A stretch of DNA of 24,000 nucleotides from Scandinavium sp. (GTDB lineage Bacteria > Pseudomonadota > Gammaproteobacteria > Enterobacterales > Enterobacteriaceae): contig NZ_DATBBJ010000099.1 in NCBI RefSeq assembly GCF_036271055.1, positions 51,216-75,215 on the forward strand, written 5' to 3'. The notes under the pieces are model-generated. The model made no database searches. It was not told the origin of the DNA and saw only the letters and a list, made by a program, of their open reading frames with translations. Positions within the stretch are counted from its first letter, which is position 1; each line of letters begins with the position of its first letter. Shown piece after piece: positions 2,346-22,592 of the stretch. The position numbers and the translations under genes are program-made.

Positions 2346-3509
2346 TTGAAAGGGTTAATACTCCCTGTGCTGATTGCGTCTACACAGCTCTGCGGCTGTG
2401 CCGGAACGCTTTCGCAAATGAATATGCCTTCCAGTGAAGTGACTCAGGTGGCGCAAAATGGACGGGCGCTTTCCGTCGACGAACTCGTCACTGAATATAT
2501 GCAGACCAAACAGGTGTCGGGCATGGTGGTGGCCGTTATTCAGCATAATGGCCCGGCGAAATTTTACTGCTATGGCGTCACGGATGCCAAAAACCATTAC
2601 CCGATAACACCGGATACCCTGTTTGCGCTCGGTTCATTGAGTAAAGGGATTACCGCCGAGGTGATAACGCTGCTGGTGAACGAGGGGCGTTTACACTGGG
2701 ATGACACACTGGATACGCTACTGCCACCGGGAACGCTGCTGAGTGCGGATGCGAAAAAAATCACGCTCCTGCAACTGGTGACGCACACTTCCGGTTTGCC
2801 GCGTCAGCCGATGAATTTGTTGTCGTTAGAGCATCTGGTGAGCTATCTGCGTGACGGCGAAAACTTCTATCAGGATTTGGACAGTGATGGCGTCCTGAAT
2901 TATCTCAGTACTTTCAATGCGCCATTAACGCATGAGCCACGTTATTCCAATATTGGCTACGCCGTGCTCGGCTATATCCTGAAATATAAAACCGGGCAGT
3001 CGATTGAAACGTTGTCAGCGCAGAAAATTTTTCAGCCACTGGAAATGGACAATGCGAGCTTCGACCCGGAAAGTCTGCGAACCTTCCCGCAGCGCGCGTT
3101 AGGGCACGCGGGTGATCAGCCGAAATTTATTGCTCGGGGCGCGTTAACACCGGACTGGCAGTTCAGCAATAATATGGTCGGTGCGGCAAGCCTTTACAGT
3201 GATGCCAGGGATCTTATCGAATATACACGGGCGCATTTTTCTTCTACAGGCAATGCGTCGCTGGACAAAGCGTTTGCAGATGTCACTGTCGATTATTTCC
3301 CTCGAGAGAAGGAAGCGGCCAATATTGCATGGATAACCGATACCTACGGTCAGCAAAAAATCACGTATCAGGTGGGCTACATCGGTGGGTATTCCAGTTA
3401 TATCGGATTCGATAAAGAAAACCAGAATGCGGTAGTGGTATTACAAAATAGCTTTAACTGGAGTAATTATATTGGGCATGCGCTATTAAAACGCATTGCC
3501 CAAAAATAA
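2346..3509 (+). CDS. AmpH-like class-C beta-lactamase-fold serine hydrolase, probable lipoprotein
   Basis: ORF 2262-3509. SxxK motif (GSLSKGIT) and YxN motif (YSNIGY) are present, with collinear similarity to remembered AmpH (ITLLQLVTHTSGLPRQP). The third motif reads QVG rather than KTG. I prefer the TTG start at 2346, preceded by AGGAAGG (2333-2339), which gives MKGLILPVLIASTQLCGC, a signal peptide plus lipobox-like LCGC. The ATG at 2262 is the alternative start. Confidence 0.8.
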   Translation: MKGLILPVLIASTQLCGCAGTLSQMNMPSSEVTQVAQNGRALSVDELVTEYMQTKQVSGMVVAVIQHNGPAKFYCYGVTDAKNHYPITPDTLFALGSLSKGITAEVITLLVNEGRLHWDDTLDTLLPPGTLLSADAKKITLLQLVTHTSGLPRQPMNLLSLEHLVSYLRDGENFYQDLDSDGVLNYLSTFNAPLTHEPRYSNIGYAVLGYILKYKTGQSIETLSAQKIFQPLEMDNASFDPESLRTFPQRALGHAGDQPKFIARGALTPDWQFSNNMVGAASLYSDARDLIEYTRAHFSSTGNASLDKAFADVTVDYFPREKEAANIAWITDTYGQQKITYQVGYIGGYSSYIGFDKENQNAVVVLQNSFNWSNYIGHALLKRIAQK

Positions 3510-3514
3510 ATCTG

Positions 3515-3766
3515 TTACCACTTCTTATCGAAGGCGTCGCGACGACCATCGCGGCGGTTTTCGCGCTTGTCCTGACGGCAACGGGAGTTGCTTTTATCAT
3601 TGTCTTTAAAGCACTCTTGCTTCTTATCGCGACCTTCGGTGCGAGCATCCTGACGGGTGTTGCGAGCATCCTGGCGCTCGTTACTGCGATGCGTTGCATG
3701 AGCAGGGAGGGTCATGGCTGACAAGAGCGTCGCAGCCGTTAATACAGAAAGTATTGTTTTTTTCAC
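3515..3766 (-). CDS. small secreted, highly charged (Arg/Asp/Lys-rich) protein of unknown function
   Basis: GTG start. The N-terminus MKKTILSVLTAATLLSAMTLPAHA is a textbook Sec signal with an AHA cleavage site. The 59-aa mature part has RQDAR(N/T) repeats and two Cys. I recognise no family. Confidence 0.55.
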   Translation of the reverse strand: MKKTILSVLTAATLLSAMTLPAHATHRSNERQDARNTRQDARTEGRDKKQECFKDNDKSNSRCRQDKRENRRDGRRDAFDKKW

Positions 3767-4074
3767 GAAGATAAAACCTTATAAATAAATGCAAAGAATG
3801 ACAATTAATATTATTAATATCAGCTCGCATAGTATCTCTTAGCGTAAATTGCAGACGTGGTGCAATTAGTGCTGTCATGTAGAAAAAACAATTCAAAATA
3901 AAATTATAGGGTATTGATCCCTGTGGGTAGCGGCGTGGTTGCGATCTTTCTCTTGAGATTAGCAAATCGATGCAATGGGATTGGAACTTTGGAGGTAGCT
4001 TAATGACAGCATTTTTCTGTGAATGGACGGGAAATCAGGTGCAAACCGGAACAACACTACATGATAATCACTAA

Positions 4075-4825
4075 ATGAAGACAGAAGCGAGCAAAAAGCA
4101 GGAGCTGAGTCTGTTCTATGGTTCATCTCAAGACTGTGTTATCAACCTCTTGGAGGCGTGTGAAACTATATCCCACTCTGGCCCGCTGAATTCGAATCAC
4201 CCTCAAGCTATTGCGAGGCACTCTCATTATCTAATTGAATTAATTGAAAAGATATCACCTCATTTGCATTGTCATACCTATCCAATAGGGCAGCGCTTTA
4301 CTCTGAGTTCGAGCCGTGACTCAAAATGCTACTACATTCGCACGGGTGCAATCTCGCTTTATCGCCAGCCGAATGATGTATTGCTCGAACTCCTTGATGC
4401 GCCAAGTATAAGAGGTATTATTCCGATCCCTCCAGATTCTGCTTCCATCTACACGCTGAAAGTGATAATCCCTGCTGAAATCGCGGTTCTGGATATTGGT
4501 TGCCTCTATGAGTTGTTGGGCGAGTTAAATTTATGGGAAACCTTCTCTCGCTATTTACAAGTGATGTCAAGTATTTTAGGGGAGGTGATTTTCAAACTGG
4601 TAGTGCCATCTGCCTATGATAGTGTGCGAATTCAACTTTATGAGTTAATGGCTAAGCACAGAAAATGTGCGCGAGCGTATCCTGGTTGAGAACTATATTC
4701 GAGATAAAACCAATATTTCACGAAGCCGAATTATGCGAATTCACTCTAATCTGAAAGCAGGTGGATATATTCTGATGGATAGAGGCATTCTAAAGGATAT
4801 AAGTAATATTCCTTTGAAATATTAA
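4075..4825 (+). pseudogene. IprA/YaiV-like regulator (Crp-like N-domain plus C-terminal winged HTH), disrupted by a +1 frameshift
   Basis: The frame-1 ORF 4075-4689 ends ...SAYDSVRIQLYELMAKH then reads junk. Frame 2 is open from 4649 and reads ENVRERILVENYIRDKTNISRSRIMRIHSNLKAGGYILMDRGILKDISNIPLKY, with a stop at 4823-4825. This is collinear with the remembered IprA C-terminus (...RIGVMNYIHQRTRVSRSVVAEVLAALRKGNYIEMNKGKLISINRLPSEY). The shift must lie within 4649-4689, near the A-run cacagaaaatg. Confidence 0.65.
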
Positions 4826-5119
4826 AGGATCGAACCAGTCATGATGTCCCTTTCATATTGGTGTCTTAAGTGTTTGTCGTTAGCTCTTGTTTGTATATTA
4901 GTTTTATTTCTTTTATGATGGCAATTCAGGTTAAGCAAACATTATCTCACCTGCGTAGAGCATTGATCCAGCAGCTTTTATATTGTCATCTTTCGTCTTC
5001 CAGACATAATCGCTGGTTTAAGAAGTGGTTGTCTCGCTGTGGAAATATTCAGTATGCCGGGAAGTCTTTAAAAGTGAATTTAAAAGTGAATAGTGCTGAT
5101 AAGCGAGGTGCTTGTAAAA

Positions 5120-13432: not shown

Positions 13433-14626
13433 GTGGAAAGGTTTGATGCCATTGTTGTCGGCGCGGGCGCGGCGGGAATGTTTTGTGCAGCGCAGGCGGG
13501 ACAGGCCGGGGCGCGAGTGTTGCTTCTGGATAACGGCAAAAAGCCGGGCCGCAAGATTTTAATGTCCGGCGGTGGGCGATGTAACTTCACCAATATGTAC
13601 GTAGAACCCGCGGCGTACCTCAGTCAGAACCCGCATTTTTGCAAATCGGCGCTGGCGCGTTACACCCAGTGGGACTTTATCGATCTGGTCGGAAAATATG
13701 GCATTGCGTGGCATGAGAAGACCCTTGGCCAGTTGTTCTGCGATGATTCCGCCGAGCAAATCGTCGACATGCTGGTGTCGGAATGCGAGAAGGGCGGGGT
13801 CATCACGCGTCTGCGTACCGAGATTATCAGCGTTGAGCGCGACGAAGAGGGCTACACGCTGCAACTCAACGGCGATACGGTGGCGGCGAAAAAACTGGTG
13901 ATTGCCAGCGGCGGGTTATCGATGCCGGGCCTCGGCGCATCGCCATTCGGCTATAAGATTGCCGAGCAGTTTGGCCTGAACGTTTTGCCGACCCGCGCAG
14001 GATTGGTGCCCTTTACACTGCACAAACCGCTGCTGGAACAATTGCAGGTGCTTTCCGGCGTTTCCGTGCCATCGGTGATCACCGCCAATGATGGCACCGT
14101 ATTCCGCGAAAACCTGTTGTTCACCCACCGTGGGCTTTCAGGCCCTGCCGTGCTGCAAATTTCCAGCTTCTGGCAATCTGGTGAATTCGTCAGCATCAAT
14201 CTACTGCCAGAGTGTGATCTTGAAACGTTCCTCGATGAGCAGCGTAACGCGCACCCCAACCAGAGCCTGAAAAACACGCTGGCGATGCAGTTGCCAAAAC
14301 GTCTGGTGGAATGCCTGCAACTGCTGGGGCAAATCCCGGATGTACAACTCAAACAACTTAACAGCAAAGATCAGCAGCAGCTGGTCGACACGCTGACCAA
14401 CTGGCGCATACAGCCAAATGGCACCGAGGGATACCGCACTGCCGAAGTAACGCTGGGTGGTGTCAATACCGATGAGCTTTCCTCACGCACTATGGAAGCG
14501 CGCAAAGTACCGGGGCTTTATTTCATCGGAGAAGTGATGGACGTTACCGGCTGGCTCGGCGGCTACAACTTCCAGTGGGCATGGGCATCGGCCTGGGCGT
14601 GCGCGCAGGCGTTGGTAGAGGCGTAG
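13433..14626 (+). CDS. yhiN: HI0933-like FAD-dependent oxidoreductase
   Basis: GTG start. (M)ERFDAIVVGAGAAGMFCAAQAGQAG (GxGxxG) and ...MSGGGRCNFTN; collinear with E. coli YhiN. Confidence 0.9.
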   Translation: MERFDAIVVGAGAAGMFCAAQAGQAGARVLLLDNGKKPGRKILMSGGGRCNFTNMYVEPAAYLSQNPHFCKSALARYTQWDFIDLVGKYGIAWHEKTLGQLFCDDSAEQIVDMLVSECEKGGVITRLRTEIISVERDEEGYTLQLNGDTVAAKKLVIASGGLSMPGLGASPFGYKIAEQFGLNVLPTRAGLVPFTLHKPLLEQLQVLSGVSVPSVITANDGTVFRENLLFTHRGLSGPAVLQISSFWQSGEFVSINLLPECDLETFLDEQRNAHPNQSLKNTLAMQLPKRLVECLQLLGQIPDVQLKQLNSKDQQQLVDTLTNWRIQPNGTEGYRTAEVTLGGVNTDELSSRTMEARKVPGLYFIGEVMDVTGWLGGYNFQWAWASAWACAQALVEA

Positions 14627-14669
14627 ATCGATAATAATGTTTGTAGCTTAAGCAAAAGGTTTGTAGTTG
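14626..14669. repeat. left arm of the two-module imperfect inverted repeat bounding the 5.6 kb island
   Basis: The outer module gatcgataataatgtttgtagctt (14626-14649) matches the reverse complement of 20255-20278 at 22 of 24 positions. The inner module gtttgtagttg (14659-14669) equals the reverse complement of 20221-20231 at 11 of 11. The arm starts on the last base of the yhiN stop codon. Confidence 0.65.
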
Positions 14670-14755: not shown

Positions 14756-14789
14756 ATAAAAAACAAACGGCACTCTATTTCAGGTGCCG
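14756..14789 (-). terminator. rho-independent terminator of the island operon (after the MFS gene)
   Basis: On the minus strand: stem acggcac, a 10-nt loop, stem gtgccgt, then TTGTTTTTT. On the plus strand the stems are at 14766-14772 and 14783-14789, with an A-rich run at 14756-14765. Confidence 0.65.
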
Positions 14790-14823
14790 TAATATGGGGA
14801 ATGTCATTGCGATTATGGCGGTG

Positions 14824-16032
14824 TTAGTATGAAGGCGCCGAGCCAGTCAGCCTACTTAACTCCGCAATGCGGAGTTGACGATATGCCAGCACTGTTGAAT
14901 ACAGCGCGAGAAGACAGCAAAGGAAGGCGAAAATAAAAATTGCGGGGTAACCGAAGATGGAGACGATAACTCCGCCAACCAGACCTGAAATGAGGATCCC
15001 TATATCAAAGCAGGATTCATAGGTGCTCAGTGCAAGCCCAATGTTTTCATCAGGCATGCTCTTGATTGCCGGCAATGCCAGTAGCGGATAGACCATAGAC
15101 AGACCGAATCCTGTCATAAACGAGCCCAGCATTGCCATCCATGGGCTTGATGCTAGCCCAATCATCAGGAGCCCTACCGCCTCGATGCAGAGTGAAAACA
15201 AGGTCAGTTTTAGCCCGGAACTGTCGGCTTTCCATCCGAGTGTAAGCCTAGAAAGAACGTATCCTACTCCAAAAAGCGAAATGGCAATAGCGGCCTGCTT
15301 ATCCCAGTCATTTTGCATAAAAAACAGTACCAGAAAACCAGTGATAGAGGCATATCCAATATTCGCCAGTGAAAAACCAGAACCAGCTTTCCAGACGCGT
15401 GTAATAGCGTAAGCAAGGGTGACATGGCTTCTGGAGGGAGAGACAGATACGGGTTTAACTAGCATGACAACGATAAAGCCCAGCAGGGGCAATATTGTCA
15501 TGATTAATGCGGAGATATTCAGACCTGAATGGGCATAGAACCATGTCCCCCCGAAATTCCCGATTGCAAGTCCCAGGAACATGGCAATCCCCACCCAGGA
15601 CATGATTTTCCCTGCATGAGCCTTTCCAACCAGTCCGATTGGCCAAGTTCCACTGCAGGTGAATATCAGACTTTCCCCGATCCCCATCAGTACCCGTGAA
15701 AACAGGATCACGCCGTAAGCTGTGTGAGACGGAGCAATAAACGTAAATGTCAACCAGCACAATAAACCGGCAGAGACCGTAAGAGATAGCCCCAGCGTCA
15801 TCCCTTTTCTTGGGCCTTGGTTGTCAGAATAGCGGCCAGCGAAGGCTCTGGAGACGAGTGTAGCCACGGACTCTGTCGCGATCACAAGCCCGACAAAAAA
15901 CGCCGAATATCCGGCGATTTTATTGATATACAAAGGAAGGATGGCAAGAGATAGCCCAAGGCTGATAATGGCCAGAAAAAGTATTCCAGCCACGAGGGTA
16001 GCAGCGATTAAATTATTCTGGATTTTGTACAT
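14824..16032 (-). CDS. MFS transporter (about 12 TMS, AraJ/YdhP/NepI-like)
   Basis: Hydrophobic throughout. MFS motif A is GRYSDNQGPRKGM. I prefer the ATG at 16032, with AGGA 8 nt upstream. The ORF extends to 16056. It overlaps the upstream formyltransferase gene by 20 nt. Confidence 0.85.
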   Translation of the reverse strand: MYKIQNNLIAATLVAGILFLAIISLGLSLAILPLYINKIAGYSAFFVGLVIATESVATLVSRAFAGRYSDNQGPRKGMTLGLSLTVSAGLLCWLTFTFIAPSHTAYGVILFSRVLMGIGESLIFTCSGTWPIGLVGKAHAGKIMSWVGIAMFLGLAIGNFGGTWFYAHSGLNISALIMTILPLLGFIVVMLVKPVSVSPSRSHVTLAYAITRVWKAGSGFSLANIGYASITGFLVLFFMQNDWDKQAAIAISLFGVGYVLSRLTLGWKADSSGLKLTLFSLCIEAVGLLMIGLASSPWMAMLGSFMTGFGLSMVYPLLALPAIKSMPDENIGLALSTYESCFDIGILISGLVGGVIVSIFGYPAIFIFAFLCCLLALYSTVLAYRQLRIAELSRLTGSAPSY

Positions 16033-16642
16033 GCATATAATCCTTATATACGACACGGGATTCGGACAATGTTATCTTTCCGTTCAAGAAGGCAAGTGCC
16101 GCACGATAAATCATCTTCTGTTCCACTTCAATAATTGCCTGCCGAAGATCACTTTCCGTCATTCCATTGGTAATCCTGACTGGCTCCTGATCAATAATGG
16201 GCCCCGCATCCACTTCCTCATTAATGAAATGCAGTGTGGCTCCGGTGACACGCAACCCCATATTCAAGGCTTTTTGCTGAGCTTTGTCTCCGGGCAAAGC
16301 AGGCAGTAAGGAAGGATGCGTGTTCATGGTTTTATGGCCAAACTCCATGGAGAATTCTTTAGTGAAAATACGTCTGAATCCACCCAGAATCACCAGATCT
16401 ATCTGGTTTTTTCGTAAGATATCGGCGATATGCTCATCAAACGCATGACGTGAATCGAAATTTTTATGATCGATGACCTTAACTTTTCTTCCTGAAAAAT
16501 TGGGGTTAGAGACCGAAGTAAACTCGCGGTTGTTAGTGATAATCACGCTCAGTTCGGCAGCGGTCTGACTGTGTTGCACTGCACGGATAGCGGATTGAAT
16601 AAGGGTTCCTCGCCCTGAAAACAGAAAGGCTATTTTTTTCAT
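16013..16642 (-). CDS. PurN-like folate-dependent formyltransferase (stand-alone, about 209 aa)
   Basis: Collinear with remembered E. coli PurN: FLFSGRGTLIQ (vs LISGNGSNLQ), VILGGFRRI (vs VLAGFMRIL), MNTHPSLLP (vs LNIHPSLLP; Asn and His conserved), EEVDAGPII (vs DELDGGPVI; Asp conserved). Its start overlaps the upstream stop as ATGA (16639-16642). Confidence 0.85.
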   Translation of the reverse strand: MKKIAFLFSGRGTLIQSAIRAVQHSQTAAELSVIITNNREFTSVSNPNFSGRKVKVIDHKNFDSRHAFDEHIADILRKNQIDLVILGGFRRIFTKEFSMEFGHKTMNTHPSLLPALPGDKAQQKALNMGLRVTGATLHFINEEVDAGPIIDQEPVRITNGMTESDLRQAIIEVEQKMIYRAALAFLNGKITLSESRVVYKDYMHVQNPE

Positions 16643-17928
16643 AGTCTGACCTGTGCTCTTAACATTTCATATTCAGTATCATTCAATTCAATATCGACAT
16701 TCACAAACCGACCGTCGATAATAATATTTTCTCCGTTGATCATTACACGCGAAGGACTTTCGCTGTTTAACAATTTGAGAAGCGATACAGGGGTATTAAT
16801 GTAGTCAGTATCAATTTTCGATTTCTCAAAAAGGATCAGATCAGCTTTGTAACCACTTTCTAGTTTGCCAACATTATTCAGGCCCAGTGTTTTGGCTCCG
16901 CCTTCGGTCAGAAAATATAGCAATTTGGCCGCAGACACTTTTTTGCTAAAATCCGTATCTCCATGGTGATATAACGCAAAAAGTGCATCAGATGTCAGGT
17001 TATTGCCCGGATTGACCATTGCCGCATCAGTACCCAGACCGATATTGACATCACTCATCAGGGCTGAGACAGGAAAGGTGCCTGCCCCGACAAAGCTGTT
17101 ACTGACGGGGCAATGAATTATCTGAGCACCACTATTCTTAAGTACAGAAATGTCGTCTTCGGAAAGATGGCTACAGTGAACAAGTGCAGTATGCCGATCA
17201 AGGATCTTTAATTCCGCTAAGCGCTGGATACCACTTTTTCCATACTTAGCACTGTGCAGATCAACCTGTATTTTCCCTTCATGCGCATGCAGGAACAGTC
17301 TGGTTCGGGTGTGACGTGCTGCTTTATGCAGAGCCAAAAGTAGTGCATCGTCGGCCGATAGTTCGGAGGCCGTAGCCGGGCTCACTGATACAAGAGAGTC
17401 TTGGTAAGAAGAAAGCGCTGCATAAAAATTATCACAGGCCACATCCACGGTACTGCGCTGTGGGCTCTGACCTTTCCCTGCCCACATGTTGCTCTGGCAA
17501 AAATTGACCACACAGCGACACCCTGTGAGTCTGGCGGCCAGGACGTCATTCTCAGCACGACTGGTAAACAGTCCAAATGTCGTCACGCCCTTTTTTATTC
17601 CAGAGGACAGCGCCTTTAGGGCCGCGATATACTGTCCCTGAGGTGACTCCAGCTCATTATTTTTATGTACAGAATCCAGCACCATATCAATCGGTGAGGC
17701 ATCAAGAATGCTGCAATGAATTTCTTTACTGGGATGAAGGTGGGCATTGACTAGCCCCGGGAAAGCAATAAGCTGGCTGGCTTCGACGATTGCTGTTTCA
17801 CTGCAGACGACCAAATCTCTCCCAATCTCAACGATGGTGTCGTCTTCGATATAGATGTCACCGCTAATGAGCAACATAGGGACCACATCAAGATATTTTA
17901 TCCCTTTAAACAGGATCTTCGTTTTCAT
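16639..17928 (-). CDS. ATZ/TRZ-type metal-dependent amidohydrolase, nucleobase/nucleoside deaminase-like
   Basis: PGLVNAHLHP (HxH), LHAHEG (His plus catalytic-type Glu), VHCSHL and GTDAA (Asp) occur in the canonical order. I prefer the start MKTKILFKG at 17928. The ORF extends to 17979. Confidence 0.85.
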   Translation of the reverse strand: MKTKILFKGIKYLDVVPMLLISGDIYIEDDTIVEIGRDLVVCSETAIVEASQLIAFPGLVNAHLHPSKEIHCSILDASPIDMVLDSVHKNNELESPQGQYIAALKALSSGIKKGVTTFGLFTSRAENDVLAARLTGCRCVVNFCQSNMWAGKGQSPQRSTVDVACDNFYAALSSYQDSLVSVSPATASELSADDALLLALHKAARHTRTRLFLHAHEGKIQVDLHSAKYGKSGIQRLAELKILDRHTALVHCSHLSEDDISVLKNSGAQIIHCPVSNSFVGAGTFPVSALMSDVNIGLGTDAAMVNPGNNLTSDALFALYHHGDTDFSKKVSAAKLLYFLTEGGAKTLGLNNVGKLESGYKADLILFEKSKIDTDYINTPVSLLKLLNSESPSRVMINGENIIIDGRFVNVDIELNDTEYEMLRAQVRL

Positions 17929-18027
17929 AATGGCTCTCTGTTTGCTGGTACAGGACAGTGGCACCTGGAGTCTGTTCATACAGACCTGTATGCCAGCCTC
18001 CTTCCTGTTAAATAAAAGTGCTGATAC

Positions 18028-18591
18028 TTATAATTTCAGGGCTTTTTGTTCGGCAATCATAGATCCAAATGCGCAACGCAGCGCTGTGCTGAATTCATCT
18101 GACCGGGTATACATCCCTCCCGTCAGGACGCCGTTCGTTCCCAACCGTTCCAGTTCCTGCCGAGAGATGGATGCAAATTTTTCCAGTACCAGATCGGAAA
18201 GCTTCAGGTTGCGTGAAAGGCCAACGGCGACGTCGGCTGGGAGCATGATCTTACCGCTGCAGCCGTAATACATTCTGCCGTCAGCGATATTTTTCAGGAC
18301 TGCCCATCCATAAAGAAAGGTCCCGTAGGATGTTTTTTCAGTAAGCCCCTCCAGAGCAATGACTACGTCAACTTCTCCTCCCAGCTTGGCTTCGAGGTTT
18401 TCAATCCGGCGGTGGCAGCCTGCCAAGGCTTCTTCATCGGTGTCAGGTGTTTCACTGACCCCGGAAGAGATGGCATAACATCTCAGTGAGAAATTATGGA
18501 ACGCCTGGCTGCATATTTCTTTTGTCGCTTTTATTTTTGCACTATTTTCAGAACATAAAGCGATAAGGGGGTGATTATTCGGCATGCGCAT
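18028..18591 (-). CDS. DUF84 / YjjX-like non-canonical NTP phosphatase homologue
   Basis: Collinear with remembered E. coli YjjX: CSENSAKIKA (vs ATTNPAKIQA), SSGVSETPDTDEEALAGCHRRIENL (vs [25 protein letters not shown]), GTNGVLTGGMYTRSDEF (vs GAIGVFTAGKLTRASVY). The start is ambiguous (ATG at 18591 or 18585; the ORF extends to 18663). Either start overlaps the upstream gene's 3' end. Confidence 0.75.
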   Translation of the reverse strand: MRMPNNHPLIALCSENSAKIKATKEICSQAFHNFSLRCYAISSGVSETPDTDEEALAGCHRRIENLEAKLGGEVDVVIALEGLTEKTSYGTFLYGWAVLKNIADGRMYYGCSGKIMLPADVAVGLSRNLKLSDLVLEKFASISRQELERLGTNGVLTGGMYTRSDEFSTALRCAFGSMIAEQKALKL

Positions 18592-19621
18592 GTACCCACT
18601 TAATAACTGGAGTCTGTTGTTGGCCGTTAATGATATCGGACAACGTATCCTGTGCTGATTCAATTAGCGGCATGCGCTTATCACTATCACTGAGCAGGTG
18701 ACTTTCTATCACCTCATGGGCCTTTTGCAGAGTTTTATTGTAGATTTGTGTGAAGGTAGTTTTCATGACTGTGGTACCGAGTCCCAGACCGTTCATGCCA
18801 CTCTGACATAAATCCTTCCACAATAATTCATGAATGAACGAAAAGAAGCCCATGTCATACGGTAAGCCTGTAATAACATCAGTACTTCGGGATGTTGTTT
18901 CGCAGTACAGGGCATTATTCTTTATGTAAAATTGAATGCCGACGGTGCAGGGAAAATCTTTGGTGTCTGACTTGTGGTAATTCTGATTAATGTTAATAAT
19001 AGCTCTGCGAGAATCCCGGTTAGCCATCAGAACATGCTTTGCCCAGTTATACTGGTTGCCGTATCCTTCTACAGGTTCATAAAAGACATAATACCCATAG
19101 TTTGAATTAACGTTACCGTCATCATCGGTCAGGCTCATCCAGAATTTTGAGGCTTTCGCCAGCCCGTCTTCAGCCTTCAGGCTTCCCTTAAAGTAGGCAA
19201 CAAACTCTCTGGCAAGATACCGAATAGCTCCTTGTCTGGTGGTATGCAATCTGTTCAGAGGGTGCCTTAATAAATAGTTTACACCATAGGCCTGCTGCGC
19301 ATCACCTGCGCGAGATGAGATGGATTCCCCTTCTGCAAGAATATGGTAAACCCCATTTCTGACGAGTTCATCGACTGAATCCGCTGCAATCGTTTTGTAG
19401 TTATTACATGAAGTGATAATGCCGTTATCCATGACGCATCCTTTGCTGAGTAATAAACATATATCACAATCCATATTAAGAATATCGACGAGGAATTTAT
19501 TGTCTATGTTTTTTTGGCTTTTATAAGCTAGGTGCATTCCAGTTATGCAATTATAAAGAGAAGGGGGTTTAGCACCGCTAAAGGATGTGTCAGTGAATTG
19601 AATGGTCTGATATTTCATCAT
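18575..19621 (-). CDS. thymidylate-synthase-superfamily enzyme, closest to T4 gp42-type deoxycytidylate (or CMP) 5-hydroxymethyltransferase
   Basis: Motifs collinear with remembered T4 gp42 and ThyA: YLAREFVAYF (gp42 YIQRELEWY), GNVNSNYGYYVF (gp42 GEINSNYGWAIW), NRDSRRAIINI (NPDSRRGIMIY), DFPCTVGIQFYI (catalytic Cys; gp42 DFMCTNTVQYLI; ThyA APCHAFFQFYV), TSRSTDVITGLPYDMGFF (gp42 NMRSNDVVFGFRNDYAW; ThyA YQRSCDVFLGLPFNIAS). Confidence 0.85.
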   Translation of the reverse strand: MMKYQTIQFTDTSFSGAKPPSLYNCITGMHLAYKSQKNIDNKFLVDILNMDCDICLLLSKGCVMDNGIITSCNNYKTIAADSVDELVRNGVYHILAEGESISSRAGDAQQAYGVNYLLRHPLNRLHTTRQGAIRYLAREFVAYFKGSLKAEDGLAKASKFWMSLTDDDGNVNSNYGYYVFYEPVEGYGNQYNWAKHVLMANRDSRRAIININQNYHKSDTKDFPCTVGIQFYIKNNALYCETTSRSTDVITGLPYDMGFFSFIHELLWKDLCQSGMNGLGLGTTVMKTTFTQIYNKTLQKAHEVIESHLLSDSDKRMPLIESAQDTLSDIINGQQQTPVIKWVHAHAE

Positions 19622-20220
19622 GATACTATTGAGGCCTTGCCAGGCCGGTGTTTCTTTTGTTATTTTCTGAGTGAATATATTAAGTGTCTGTGAATTTTCG
19701 CGGTTTAATCTATGTCTTTTAATTAATTAGACCTGTGTCACGTTTTTGATATTATTACAGACGACGGCGTTTTAAAATTAAACGAGGGGGCTTCATGACC
19801 GGATTCGTCATCCAATACGACGCTATCTCCTTACAATAAAAAGCCCATACAGAGGTAGGAAGCGACCTGCGCCAGTCACTGTCCTGATGCTTAGCCTAGC
19901 CCACAAACTCCAGCATGTCCCCTGCCAGCAGCCTGAATGTATGCATACTGTCCGTGGTAGCGGTGATCGCAGTCTCTCCTGCATCGGTGGCCAGAGAGTT
20001 GCCCTTTAGTTCCCCTAGCACAACAGCCAGTGACCCTCTATCGGTTTGCATGGACCTAATGCTGTCGAGTATGCACTCAGCGGTGCAGATATGTAACATT
20101 CGGTAGGCTAGCAATCAGGTGCACACGATTGCATCTTCCTGTCTTAGCATCAGAATTGCGACTCAGGGTGGAAGATAGGTCTGACAATCCCTTGTTTGTC
20201 TTACTGGTAAGCACTGAATG

Positions 20221-20583: not shown

Positions 20584-21172
20584 CGACGGTCTCTGGCAAC
20601 ACTCTACGCACTGCCAGCAGGCGACGGTTCCAGTAAGGGTCATTCAGCTGTGAAATGGTGACCCCTTTCCGGCGGGATGCGTGAATAAACCGATTTTCCC
20701 CGATATAAATCCCCACATGTTTTTGCGCTCGCCCGGTTTTAAAGAACACCAGATCGCCAATCCGCCTCGTACCCTGCTTCGCTCTTTTACCTCTTGTTAA
20801 TTGCCCGGTCGTTGTTCGCGGCAAGTTCACGTCAAACGCATCCTGATACAAGCGGCGGGTCAGTGCAGAGCAATCAATCGCTTTGTGCGAGTTTGCTCCC
20901 AGTCGATAGCGGGTGCCTTTCCATTGTTTGTACTGGTTCATCAGGCGGGTACGGCGTTTGAGATTTGCCGCAGTTTTAATGGGCTTTGAGGCTGTCTGAA
21001 TTTTAATCGGTTTTGCGGTTGTTTTTTTATGCTTGTGTTTATGCTTCGTGCTTGTTTTGGTGTGTGTTTTTTTGTGATGAGGGGCGGCGTGATGATCACG
21101 AGCAGCCTGCGCGCTACAGTGGAAGGAAAACAATAAACAGAACAATAAGACAAGGCGCAGAGACATAATCAC
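20576..21172 (-). CDS. secreted NlpC/P60-family peptidoglycan endopeptidase with a His/Lys/Thr-rich linker
   Basis: Signal peptide MIMSLRLVLLFCLLFSFHCSAQA. NlpC/P60 catalytic pattern: AIDCSALTRRLY (Cys), HVGIYIGENRFIHAS (His...His). Confidence 0.85.
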   Translation of the reverse strand: MIMSLRLVLLFCLLFSFHCSAQAARDHHAAPHHKKTHTKTSTKHKHKHKKTTAKPIKIQTASKPIKTAANLKRRTRLMNQYKQWKGTRYRLGANSHKAIDCSALTRRLYQDAFDVNLPRTTTGQLTRGKRAKQGTRRIGDLVFFKTGRAQKHVGIYIGENRFIHASRRKGVTISQLNDPYWNRRLLAVRRVLPETVVR

Positions 21173-21337
21173 TATCGAGTTATTAATCGTAAATGAACAA
21201 AAATTTCTATGGCTGAATGCTACGTTTTTTAGGTGTGATGAGCAACGCTGAAAAAGTAAATTGCAAATTTAAATGAAGAATTGATCACCATCACTTTTGA
21301 TAGTGCGACACGTTTTGATAGAAACTTAAACAGAATA

Positions 21338-21373
21338 GAGAAAGAAAATAGCCAGGGAGAGTGGCTCTCCCTG
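21338..21373 (-). terminator. rho-independent terminator candidate after the LuxR-type gene
   Basis: A 9-bp stem, cagggagag (21353-21361) with ctctccctg (21365-21373), and a 3-nt loop. On the minus strand it is followed by the T-rich tract ctATTTTCTTTCTC. Confidence 0.5.
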
Positions 21374-21395
21374 CTGGCCTGAGCAAATGAAATTT

Positions 21396-22034
21396 TTAGG
21401 CTTGTTGCGAAAGCAGTCCGTGCAATTTTGACCCATTACTGCGTGAAATTGCCGTTTTGATACGCAGCATCGCCAGCGTATTTTTTGATTTCATGCGCAG
21501 TTTATGTTGAATATTCACGCGATGACCGCTGGCCGTTTTCTGCGAGATATCCAGTTCACGGGCAATTTTTACATTTTGCAGGTGGAATACTTCAAGGATA
21601 TCCAGTTCACGTTGAGTGAGGACATTCTGACGCGGCTTTGGAAAATAACGAACAATTTTCTGGATATAATGCGGAGTGCATTCCATGGAAGAGAACACCA
21701 CGTCACCAATCTTAAAGCAATGATCTTTAATGATATCCTGCATCAGAATCATGTACTTGAGATGCAACTGATTCACTTTCTTAATGAAGTAATCGCGCAG
21801 GAAAAGATTTTCAATACCAACAACTAAATAGTTGTCCTGATTATAGGATTCAAGGTACGCGTCAATATCACGCTTGTCTGAAATCTGATGAGAGTCGAAA
21901 ACTTGCGATTCGATACCTGTGCACAGATAGAAATTATCGCTAACAAAGCTAATGTTCATAATAGAGGGATATCCCTGTTCGGTATTTAAAAGGAAAACAA
22001 GGCCGTTTATATTTAATTTTAAATTATCGGCCAC
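21396..22034 (-). CDS. orphan LuxR/GerE-type HTH transcriptional regulator with an atypical (non-receiver-like) N-domain
   Basis: The C-terminal LTQRELDILEVFHLQNVKIARELDISQKTASGHRVNIQHKL is a GerE-type HTH. Architecture resembles GadE/YhiF(DctR)-type regulators. The GTG start at 22034 is uncertain; an internal ATG at 21959 is the alternative. Confidence 0.7.
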   Translation of the reverse strand: MADNLKLNINGLVFLLNTEQGYPSIMNISFVSDNFYLCTGIESQVFDSHQISDKRDIDAYLESYNQDNYLVVGIENLFLRDYFIKKVNQLHLKYMILMQDIIKDHCFKIGDVVFSSMECTPHYIQKIVRYFPKPRQNVLTQRELDILEVFHLQNVKIARELDISQKTASGHRVNIQHKLRMKSKNTLAMLRIKTAISRSNGSKLHGLLSQQA

Positions 22035-22592
22035 CTACTTATCGGCCCAAACAGTACGGTTATTACCCAGGTGATGTAAACCGCAAAAATGTTAAATGTC
22101 TTTTTTTGAATATTTAAAACAATATATAACCATTTGTTTTGTAATGTTTTATTGAGGTGGGGTTTGCGGTGAAAATAATATGAAGTTACATATCGTATGA
22201 TTTTACTGCTGTAAACAACGCTGAAATGGATTATCAGGGAGAGAATTTTCTCATTCGCCACTTCGGTAAAGCATGTTCTGACATTTTGCTGTTTCGTTTC
22301 AGACTTGCCCTGCTGACGGGAAGCATTCTTTCCTTCTTCGCGTTTTATACTCTGCTCCTTTTCCGTTCCTCGTAACAGTGCTAACACTCCTAAAATGAAT
22401 AATAAAATGTGGCCGCGATCATTAAATCAAAGTCATACCCTCCGCTTTGTTGAGCTTAGGTTGAAGTTATGTGCGTACGGCTTGATATCAGCGTTATTAC
22501 AATGAGATGAAAATTTAATGTTGGCGAAAGTGGGTTTCATTAAAACCCTTTTACAACAATGAGTTGGCCTGTATTTTTAAATGCTTTGAATT

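Follow-up and report, generated by a model that had tools for sequence, protein, structure and literature searches.

The phage T4 pathway to hydroxymethyl-dCTP (hm-dCTP) combines a dCTPase (gp56), the dCMP hydroxymethylase gp42 and a dNMP kinase (gp1), and in the mildiomycin (MilA/MilB) and bacimethrin (BcmA-D) systems a cytosine-nucleotide hydroxymethylase of the thymidylate synthase (TS) family opens a small-molecule pathway. Here we describe a cassette of five genes in a 24,000-nucleotide (nt) stretch of Scandinavium sp. DNA (the window, to whose positions all coordinates refer). All five lie on the minus strand, and they encode a TS-like enzyme, a nucleoside triphosphatase (NTPase) of the DUF84 family, a deaminase-type amidohydrolase, a PurN-like formyltransferase and a transporter of the major facilitator superfamily (MFS). 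We class the cassette with the mil and bcm systems, as a pyrimidine antimetabolite pathway initiated by a TS-family hydroxymethylase, in which the deoxy-type lineage and the tailoring set are new and the mobility is unusual. That it makes and exports a hydroxymethyl-pyrimidine nucleoside, most likely as an antimetabolite against competitors, is a reading of the sequences to which we give roughly an even chance.

As in the T4 pathway, an NTP hydrolase is paired in the cassette with an enzyme of the TS family, whose signature residues for cytosine, deoxyribose and hydroxymethylation are those of T4 gp42. Unlike its T4 equivalent, however, the cassette enzyme has an extra conserved C-terminal helical region, its partner NTPase is a DUF84 protein, which T4 gp56 is not known to be, and a deaminase, a formyltransferase and a predicted exporter stand in place of the kinase. 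The cassette is furthermore cellular or plasmid-borne, and none of its phage homologues exceeds 32% identity, which rules out a recent phage origin. With the mil and bcm systems it shares the initiating hydroxymethylase, predicted in its case, and its sister clusters too would free the base by means of an N-glycosidase. In contrast to those systems, it is without a MilB/BcmB-type glycosidase, a methyltransferase or a ThiD-type kinase, and its DUF84, amidohydrolase and PurN-like proteins have no known counterpart in mil or bcm. An earlier reading of this DNA by eye and from translations (the sequence-only reading) had remarked on the absence of an N-glycosidase; this holds for the five genes here but not for the sister versions, whose glycosidases are of the LOG or RihA types.

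A further parallel is found within the Enterobacterales, where the three-gene Photorhabdus cluster thmA-C yields 4'-thiothymidine, a thymidine-analogue prodrug, and where the nucleoside triphosphatase ThmC alone confers self-resistance (PMC12691670). Both are very small Enterobacterales operons with an NTPase and with a known or, here, putative deoxynucleoside-analogue prodrug as product, but the thm chemistry is that of a radical S-adenosylmethionine thiosugar and involves no folate enzymes. E. coli YjjX (a DUF84 ITPase/XTPase) and YjjG (a noncanonical pyrimidine nucleotidase) share their Pfam and NCBIfam families with the cluster NTPase and with the HAD nucleotidase of its relatives, yet the cluster proteins fall far below the equivalog cut-offs, as dedicated paralogues rather than housekeeping genes. 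Similarly, the glycinamide ribonucleotide (GAR) transformylase PurN shares its fold and its catalytic Asn-His-Asp with the cluster formyltransferase, which marginally passes the corresponding model but forms a clade apart. Full-text searches of the literature open without subscription returned no description of this gene combination, and searches of PADLOC, NCBIfam and Rfam yielded no characterised pathway of this composition, in agreement with the sequence-only reading, which knew of none.

The operon and its five proteins

Five consecutive minus-strand open reading frames (ORFs), whose longest readings span 14824-19621 and whose likely coding span is 14824-19432, make up the operon. Its genes and adjoining signals are as follows (THF, tetrahydrofolate; aa, amino acids).

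18575-19432, minus strand: TS-superfamily enzyme, predicted (d)CMP C5-hydroxymethylase (285 aa; PF00303)
18028-18585, minus strand: DUF84/NTPase_I-T family nucleoside triphosphatase (185 aa; PF01931)
16639-17928, minus strand: deaminase-type metal amidohydrolase (429 aa; PF01979)
16013-16642, minus strand: PurN-like 10-formyl-THF-dependent formyltransferase (209 aa; PF00551)
14824-16032, minus strand: YhhS/PRK05122-type MFS transporter, predicted exporter (402 aa; MFS_1)
14758-14790, minus strand: intrinsic-terminator-like hairpin and U-run, 3' of the MFS stop (from folding and shuffles)
19479-19506, minus strand: sigma-70-like promoter candidate on weak evidence (TAGACA-16-TATTCT, 9/12 matches)

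The tight packing, from which translational coupling had been suggested, can be read directly in the sequence: the TS-like and DUF84 genes overlap by 11 nt (ATGCCGAATAA), or by 17 nt if an alternative ATG is used, the amidohydrolase and PurN-like genes share an ATGA (4 nt), and the PurN-like and MFS genes overlap by 20 nt. A 99-nt gap separates the DUF84 and amidohydrolase genes. The starts at 18585 (DUF84), 17928 (amidohydrolase) and 16032 (MFS) follow the gene calls of an identical public contig and are supported by homologues. The terminator which the operon had been said to possess is present as a hairpin followed by UUUGUUUUUU, ~35 nt past the MFS stop; its fold (-12.3 kcal/mol, z = -3.74) was matched in stability by none of 200 shuffles, and a consensus terminator scan made no call at this site. 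The five-gene operon is horizontally acquired. Its GC content, 0.465, is lower than that of the left flank (uspB-pitA-yhiN, 0.541), and GC at third codon positions is 0.45-0.52 against 0.62-0.68 in yhiN, pitA and prlC; the earlier description of the operon as AT-rich is accurate in that it lies below its host flank, but only relative to that host.

One claim of the sequence-only reading requires revision, namely that the first gene begins at 19621. Its protein homologues are ~285 aa long, as opposed to the 348 aa of the longest reading from that position, and the ATG at 19432 is preceded at 8 nt by AAGGA, a Shine-Dalgarno-like motif. The promoter candidate at 19479-19506, the sole promoter-like site of the minus strand near the 5' end of the operon, lies ~47 nt upstream of this ATG and within the 348-aa ORF; as promoter-like sites in the region are no more numerous than in shuffles, it is a candidate only. 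Because of the homologue length, the AAGGA and the promoter-like site inside the longer ORF, the first gene is most likely 18575-19432, ~63 codons shorter than the longest reading (the other, longer start options are 19537 and 19621).

Pfam and NCBIfam profile searches confirmed the five families that had been named, and a search for inactivating substitutions found none in the cluster proteins. The first enzyme matches PF00303 (Thymidylat_synt) at 1.5e-19 (70.7 bits against a cut-off of 24.3). Among solved structures, T4 dCMP hydroxymethylase is its top match by sequence (1.5e-12), and Foldseek places its AlphaFold2 model (predicted local distance difference test score 91.2) nearest to MilA (template-modelling score 0.74-0.77), followed by the T4 enzyme and then by thymidylate synthases. 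Sequence identity is nevertheless only ~20-22% to T4 gp42 and ~20% to the structural neighbours. A profile search of 1.84 billion representatives recovered ~30-40 full-length clusters, at 50% identity, of this tight TS-like family.

The residues of the enzyme were read from HMMER alignments with its T4 equivalent and with E. coli TS, and from an alignment of 16 diverse family members in which all those named here are invariant. Catalytic Cys162 (in FPCT) and Glu76 (equivalent to Glu58/Glu60) are kept. Asp193 (in LPYD) occupies the position of E. coli TS Asn177 and T4 Asp179, at which Asp rather than Asn is the determinant for cytosine (PMC5175136, PMC6400193). Ser183 and Arg141/142 stand where the CMP-preferring MilA and BcmA carry Ala and Lys, so that the enzyme has the dCMP-type Ser/Arg pair instead of the ribose-preference pair Ala176/Lys133; the A176S/K133R double mutant of MilA switches to dCMP. 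Lastly, Asp159-Phe-Pro-Cys162, with Asp three residues before Cys, and Ser110-Asn-Tyr112 correspond to the D-x-x-C and S-x-Y motifs which were proposed, in the paper on the ternary complex of T4 dCMP hydroxymethylase, to separate hydroxymethylases from methylases. With these cytosine, deoxyribose and hydroxymethylation signatures, "gp42-like" was an apt description. Judged by alignment, the enzyme carries every published dCMP hydroxymethylase signature, and we predict it to be a third lineage of TS-family hydroxymethylases with 5-hydroxymethyl-dCMP as its product. The preference for deoxy- over ribonucleotides is the least secure part of this putative assignment. A role in trimethoprim or thymidylate bypass was also considered and ruled out, as the enzyme is cytosine-specific by signature and there is no reductase to take hydroxymethyl to methyl.

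The DUF84 protein matches PF01931 (NTPase_I-T) at 1.5e-29 (103.4 bits against a cut-off of 25), keeps the catalytic residues of the family and aligns with YjjX in the PDB at 3.8e-7, family motifs included, but remains well below the YjjX equivalog cut-offs of NCBIfam (NF003459, 54.9 against 175; NF002850, 63.8 against 199). The amidohydrolase (PF01979, Amidohydro_1, 1.8e-37) reaches no NCBIfam equivalog cut-off, its best score being 148 against 532. Its closest PDB entries are 3LNP, 4DYK/4GBD, 7WW2 and 4F0R, and by sequence it appears nearest to nucleoside deaminases of the methylthioadenosine, S-adenosylhomocysteine and adenosine type, 8-oxoguanine deaminases and TRZ/ATZ triazine hydrolases. 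H63/H65 (HxH), H214-x-x-E217, H251 and D301, the metal and catalytic set of the subtype-III amidohydrolase deaminases (to which guanine deaminases also belong), are invariant in all 15 clade sequences aligned. This clade is confined to the clusters, scores dropping from 280 to 154 bits between its members and ordinary proteins of the family.

The PurN-like protein matches PF00551 (Formyl_trans_N) at 2.6e-39, scores 156.4 against the TIGR00639 cut-off of 150.1 and is ~35-40% identical to genuine GAR transformylases. Its catalytic Asn-His-Asp is invariant (N107, H109 and D145, for Asn106, His108 and Asp144 of PurN) and Glu173 is kept. Five other features, in PurN numbering, set the cluster proteins apart: Asn13 to Leu, Arg168 to Ala, Met89 to Arg, Ile107 to Thr and, in the loop 119-123, GLHxH to GDKAQ were found in 10/10 cluster proteins and in 0/6 housekeeping PurNs, and a score gap from 169 to 143 bits divides the two clades. 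From the E. coli and human PurN structures we take Asn13 and the 168-170 region to bind the phosphate of GAR and Glu173 to hold its ribose hydroxyls; Met89, Ile107 and loop 119-123 presumably line the pocket. If these residue roles hold, the change of Asn13 and Arg168 together with the retention of Glu173 gives a lead to an acceptor which is ribose-like but non-phosphorylated.

The transporter matches MFS_1 at 3.6e-37, passes the YhhS-type model NF003477 (394 against 374) and is 62-85% identical to its sister-cluster counterparts; we predict that it is an exporter. A cut-off-passing NCBIfam equivalog annotation is thus missing for three of the four enzymes, and the amidohydrolase and PurN-like proteins are, on sequence criteria, dedicated co-evolving clades with intact catalytic residues.

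Co-conservation and sister clusters

Co-conservation was assessed by tblastn of the five proteins against the loci recovered with the first protein, as well as by gene-context and plasmid searches. At least 10 genera share the five genes and their order, among them the following.

Edwardsiella anguillarum: identities of the five proteins 80/71/70/79/85%
Trabulsiella odontotermitis: identities of the five proteins 78/70/70/77/85%
Burkholderia sp.: identities of the five proteins 65/42/39/48/62%
Erwinia persicina, Dickeya oryzae and Ewingella americana: all five proteins, same order

Across carriers, sequence identity falls off in step for the five proteins, which indicates that the cassette is inherited and transferred as a whole unit; together with the shared order in at least 10 genera, this places the arrangement far beyond chance. 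The same taxa appear among the homologues of the TS-like, PurN-like and amidohydrolase proteins, and the cassette is also present in Bacillus. Chance juxtaposition, which the sequence-only reading had proposed to check, can be dismissed, as the five genes are kept as a unit on plasmids, on an integrative and conjugative element (ICE) and on chromosomal islands. In Haemophilus influenzae, a six-gene version with an added HAD nucleotidase is cargo of an ICE (L022-L024, 8001-13066) with a TraI_2 relaxase, a phage-type integrase and ArdC, inserted beside a tRNA gene. Salmonella carries the cassette on plasmid-like contigs with KfrA, CcdAB, Hha, ProQ and Tn3 functions, and in Pseudomonas sp. GGS8 it is flanked by insertion sequence (IS) fragments. 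In E. coli it is found on an IncK2/Z conjugative plasmid from chicken and on pSTEC2018_553-f (L032, NZ_CP075671.1, 5698 bp), which consists of the five cluster genes and nothing else; the latter is typed as a non-mobilizable plasmid, and its record, deposited as linear, may be an unclosed contig. The RefSeq names of the cluster genes in the E. coli plasmid records are generic. When 5,426 complete E. coli genomes were searched with the cluster by megablast, no match was obtained, which reflects the sensitivity of that search, since a more sensitive plasmid search found the cluster in E. coli plasmids at 65-71% identity.

Comparison of the versions separates a fixed part from a variable one. From Proteobacteria to Patescibacteria the DUF84 gene always adjoins the TS-like gene, and in metagenome-assembled genomes of Dependentiae/Babeliales (L012, L013, L014, L015, L018 and L021) its place is taken by a NudG-like Nudix protein whose best family is "pyrimidine (deoxy)nucleoside triphosphate diphosphatase" (124 bits). 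The invariant core, as far as gene content indicates, is a putative hydroxymethylase with an NTP hydrolase, either DUF84 or NudG-like Nudix. The TS-like proteins of Dependentiae/Babeliales have a hydrophobic N-terminal extension. The TS-like/Nudix pair of L018 is flanked by two genes which, from their N-terminal sequence, we take to resemble ATP/ADP (NTT-type) nucleotide translocases. In a Patescibacteria locus (L017 8691-11429), Nudix, guanylate-kinase-like, TS-like and DUF84 genes stand in a row, and separate fusion proteins (P0340, P0385 and P0389) join a TS-like domain to a weakly matching P-loop kinase-like/thymidylate-kinase-like or dCMP deaminase domain. This suggests a T4-like synthesis of hm-dNTP in Patescibacteria and lineages of the candidate phyla radiation (CPR) type; the core pair with its kinase neighbours or fusions has the same logic as T4 gp56, gp42 and gp1. 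Within the cassette, the position of the kinase appears to be held by enzymes which would draw material from the nucleotide pool.

Around this core the remaining genes vary. A YjjG/PynA-like pyrimidine 5'-nucleotidase of the HAD family sits exactly in the gap between the DUF84 and amidohydrolase genes in Erwinia, Dickeya, Ewingella, Haemophilus, Pseudomonas and Bacillus; the nucleotidase of these six-gene versions is below the YjjG equivalog cut-off (109 against 160), and such a gene is found in the majority of versions outside Enterobacteriaceae. A RihA-like nucleosidase lies 3' of the operon in Pseudomonas, and LOG-family phosphoribohydrolases, also N-glycosidases, occur in the Burkholderia, Bradyrhizobium, Thermoactinomycetaceae and Acetivibrio versions. 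The transporter slot holds a YhhS-like MFS protein in most versions and an EamA/DMT protein (YddG/YedA-like) in Bacillus and Baia, and next to the Acetivibrio variant is a MatE gene interrupted by an IS. Two lineages lack PurN and carry other acyl-transfer enzymes: an ATP-grasp enzyme and a GNAT in Bradyrhizobium, and in Baia soyae (L008) three or four ATP-grasp enzymes, two of them of the L-amino-acid-ligase (LAL) type (DdaF/BacD-like), in the order TS-DUF84-amidohydrolase-LAL-LAL-ATPgrasp-MFS-LOG-ATPgrasp. Firmicute versions add a conserved alpha/beta hydrolase. A half-cassette of Baia soyae (L034 7473-11792), beside an IS and without TS-like or DUF84 genes, reads EamA-HAD-amidohydrolase-PurN-like-alpha/beta hydrolase, and the 268-aa alpha/beta hydrolase of this species is 59% identical to one by the Bacillus cytotoxicus cluster (L006 8951-9757). 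In the latter locus, ~100 bp downstream of the PurN-like gene, an ORF at 14956-16581 resembles what we take, from its N-terminal sequence, to be CTP synthase (pyrG); were it a second copy dedicated to the cluster, it would point to CTP or dCTP as the precursor. A fixed precursor module with swappable tailoring enzymes and a swappable exporter would, by analogy, have the look of diversifying natural-product clusters.

Boundaries and genomic setting

Three further features lie around the operon.

14626-14669, no strand assigned: left arm of an imperfect inverted repeat bounding the low-GC segment; its first base is the last of the yhiN stop codon
20221-20278, no strand assigned: right arm of the same imperfect repeat, at the other end of the low-GC segment (from repeat search and alignment)
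19433-20220, no strand assigned: unassigned AT-rich DNA of ~790 bp, from the operon to the right inverted repeat, without family or BLAST match

The core of the inverted repeat is 24 nt long (GATCGAYAATAAWGTTTGTAGCTT, 22/24 matching), with an extra GTTTGTAGTTG copy at a different spacing, and the motif GTTTGTAG[CT]T occurs in four places in the window, all within the arms. The motif was found neither elsewhere in the window nor in any related locus, the bracketed segment contains no transposase, and no target-site duplication is visible. We therefore regard the repeats as a boundary feature; because the motif is absent from other loci and there is no target-site duplication, a transposon origin of the 5.65-kb segment is unproven. 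The amidohydrolase and the PurN-like protein match proteins of a Scandinavium sp. assembly at 100% identity. The uspB-pitA-yhiN left flank is 76% identical to E. coli, and an exact-sequence search with YhiN for island-free relatives gave no match.

Between the operon and the right arm (19433-20220) there is no ORF with a family match, no Rfam match and no informative BLAST match. Compared with E. coli genomes and plasmids, the 1.17 kb upstream of the operon gave no informative match, and a 72-aa ORF there has no Pfam family. A divergent LysR regulator occupies the upstream position in the sister clusters of Erwinia, Ewingella and the E. coli plasmid, and no LysR remnant was found when sought upstream of the operon here. 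Rfam searches covered the window and six loci at gathering thresholds, as well as the leader at permissive E-values, and yielded no riboswitch or leader RNA; the only matches were unrelated ones in the other loci (tRNAs, a T-box and a group II intron).

Elsewhere the window contains treF, gor, rlmJ and prlC to the left and, to the right, an NlpC/P60 gene, a GerE-type regulator and a DegT-family aminotransferase. Two other patches are low in GC. One, at 3500-5000 (0.37-0.44), holds a 204-aa ORF (4075-4689) without a Pfam family, beside a beta-lactamase-family gene; the other, at 21000-22500 (0.38-0.40), holds the GerE/LuxR-type regulator (21396-22034), which adjoins the NlpC/P60 gene (20576-21172).

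Proposed function and alternatives

From the family assignments and signature residues we infer each chemical step of a route by which a self-contained mobile cassette would divert cytosine deoxynucleotides into an exported 5-hydroxymethyl-pyrimidine nucleoside derivative. The DUF84 protein would hydrolyse a pyrimidine (d)NTP, thereby supplying dCMP from dCTP, as T4 gp56 does, and/or destroying the triphosphate of the product, as ThmC does, so that the producer avoids incorporating it. The TS-like enzyme is predicted by its signature residues to convert dCMP, 5,10-methylene-THF and water to 5-hydroxymethyl-dCMP and THF. A pyrimidine 5'-nucleotidase would then remove the phosphate, for which the five-gene version would need a host enzyme; a chromosomal yjjG is assumed for Enterobacteriaceae. 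The amidohydrolase, given its family and catalytic residues, would remove the 4-amino group to leave the thymidine analogue 5-hydroxymethyl-deoxyuridine or its nucleotide, and in mammalian cells it is the deamination of 5-hydroxymethyl-deoxycytidine to 5-hydroxymethyl-deoxyuridine which makes the former genotoxic. Finally, the PurN-like enzyme would move a formyl group from 10-formyl-THF to the non-phosphorylated intermediate, and the YhhS-like MFS protein would export the product. The sequence-only reading had left the choice between synthesis with export and import with processing; we favour the former and disfavour import, because EamA replaces MFS in some versions, MatE adjoins one variant and the sister clusters carry tailoring enzymes.

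Several points weigh against this proposal. The most immediate is chemical: the predicted deaminase would remove the sole exocyclic amine, and PurN-type enzymes are N-formyltransferases, so that no obvious nitrogen nucleophile would be left. One of three options must apply, in that formylation at N4 precedes or competes with deamination, the acceptor is the oxygen of 5-CH2OH or some other group, or the amidohydrolase spares N4. The five-gene version has neither a nucleotidase nor a glycosidase. The deoxy-versus-ribo assignment hangs on two residues calibrated on five enzymes, and the RihA-type and LOG-type glycosidases of sister clusters usually take ribo-substrates. The score of the PurN-like protein lies narrowly above the PurN equivalog cut-off, so that it may in truth be a GAR transformylase, for example a resistant copy of a target; we disfavour this on account of the clade-wide pocket changes and of the replacement by GNAT and ATP-grasp enzymes in sister clusters. 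Lastly, the MFS sequence does not reveal the direction of transport.

Other explanations draw on parts of the same evidence. The carriage of the cassette as cargo of plasmids, an ICE and IS-flanked islands, together with an NTPase and hydroxymethylase logic which mirrors the nucleotide pathway of phage T4, would suit an anti-phage or anti-plasmid defence in which dCTP is drained (dCTP to dCMP to hm-dCMP to nucleoside, and out) or phage hm-dCTP is destroyed, starving the replication of the invader; nucleotide-depleting defence systems do exist. However, the five cluster proteins, to which the PADLOC search was limited, gave 0 matches to 5027 models, no recognisable defence gene stands among the family-listed neighbours, and there is no sensor or trigger component. 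As the synthesis of hm-dCMP would also feed T-even phages, and as the exporters, ATP-grasp ligases and GNAT of sister clusters fit biosynthesis better, we consider defence unlikely. The vehicles concerned, an IncK2/Z plasmid of chicken E. coli and a Haemophilus ICE, are equally of the type associated with resistance, and an exogenous toxic nucleoside, nucleobase or antifolate-type compound might be inactivated by dephosphorylation, deamination and formylation and then expelled. Such detoxification would accord with the divergent LysR regulator of some versions, the house-cleaning affinities of the YjjG-like and DUF84 families and the Baia soyae half-cassette, which dispenses with the TS-like and DUF84 genes. 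Yet the half-cassette lies beside an IS and looks truncated, peptide-ligase tailoring enzymes are present in sister clusters, and the most conserved member of the cassette, a hydroxymethylase which would form a C-C bond, has no obvious role in it; a detoxifying function seems quite improbable.

The cassette might instead import an environmental pyrimidine, 5-substituted or N-formylated, for catabolism or salvage, the TS-like enzyme working backwards and handing a C1 unit to THF. This would be compatible with the unreadable direction of the transporter and with the LysR regulator and its divergent operon, an arrangement typical of catabolic loci. We hold it to be very improbable: a catabolic route would have no use for an NTP hydrolase, exporters abound in the transporter families concerned (YhhS-like, and EamA of the YddG/YedA type), and we know of no reverse hydroxymethylase activity. 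The CPR relatives, which pair the enzyme with nucleotide kinases or are fused to them after the logic of T4 gp1/gp42/gp56, raise instead the idea that hm-dCTP is supplied for the replacement or modification of cytosine in the DNA of the carrier or mobile element, as in T-even phages. The proteobacterial cassette, on the other hand, is without a kinase, and its deaminase and exporter, with the phosphatase of sister clusters, would pull material out of the dNTP pool; this is the least probable of the explanations considered.

Returning to the synthesis and export of a hydroxymethyl-pyrimidine nucleoside, a more specific form of this proposal can be ventured as a tentative possibility, one we would not expect to hold in every part: the cassette may be a plasmid- or ICE-borne "nucleoside bacteriocin", with a secreted deoxypyrimidine nucleoside that would bear a 5-hydroxymethyl (or other C5) function and a formyl group on N or O, synthesis by a third lineage of cellular dCMP hydroxymethylases, immunity through DUF84, and a formyl transfer derived from GAR transformylase which would be without known precedent. 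If so, a cellular relative of phage dCMP hydroxymethylase would have been recruited to a compact mobile operon which turns DNA precursors into an exported nucleoside analogue. Nucleoside natural products would gain a new chemotype and new enzymology, in the form of a repurposed PurN, a new deaminase clade and a DUF84 protein with a defined role, and DUF84 itself would acquire a concrete biological context. Sister clusters in which acetyl or aminoacyl groups would take the place of formyl would define a compound family in E. coli, Salmonella, Haemophilus, plant pathogens and Bacillus, and the conjugative plasmids and ICEs of clinically relevant bacteria would be seen to carry a hitherto unrecognised competitive or toxic trait.

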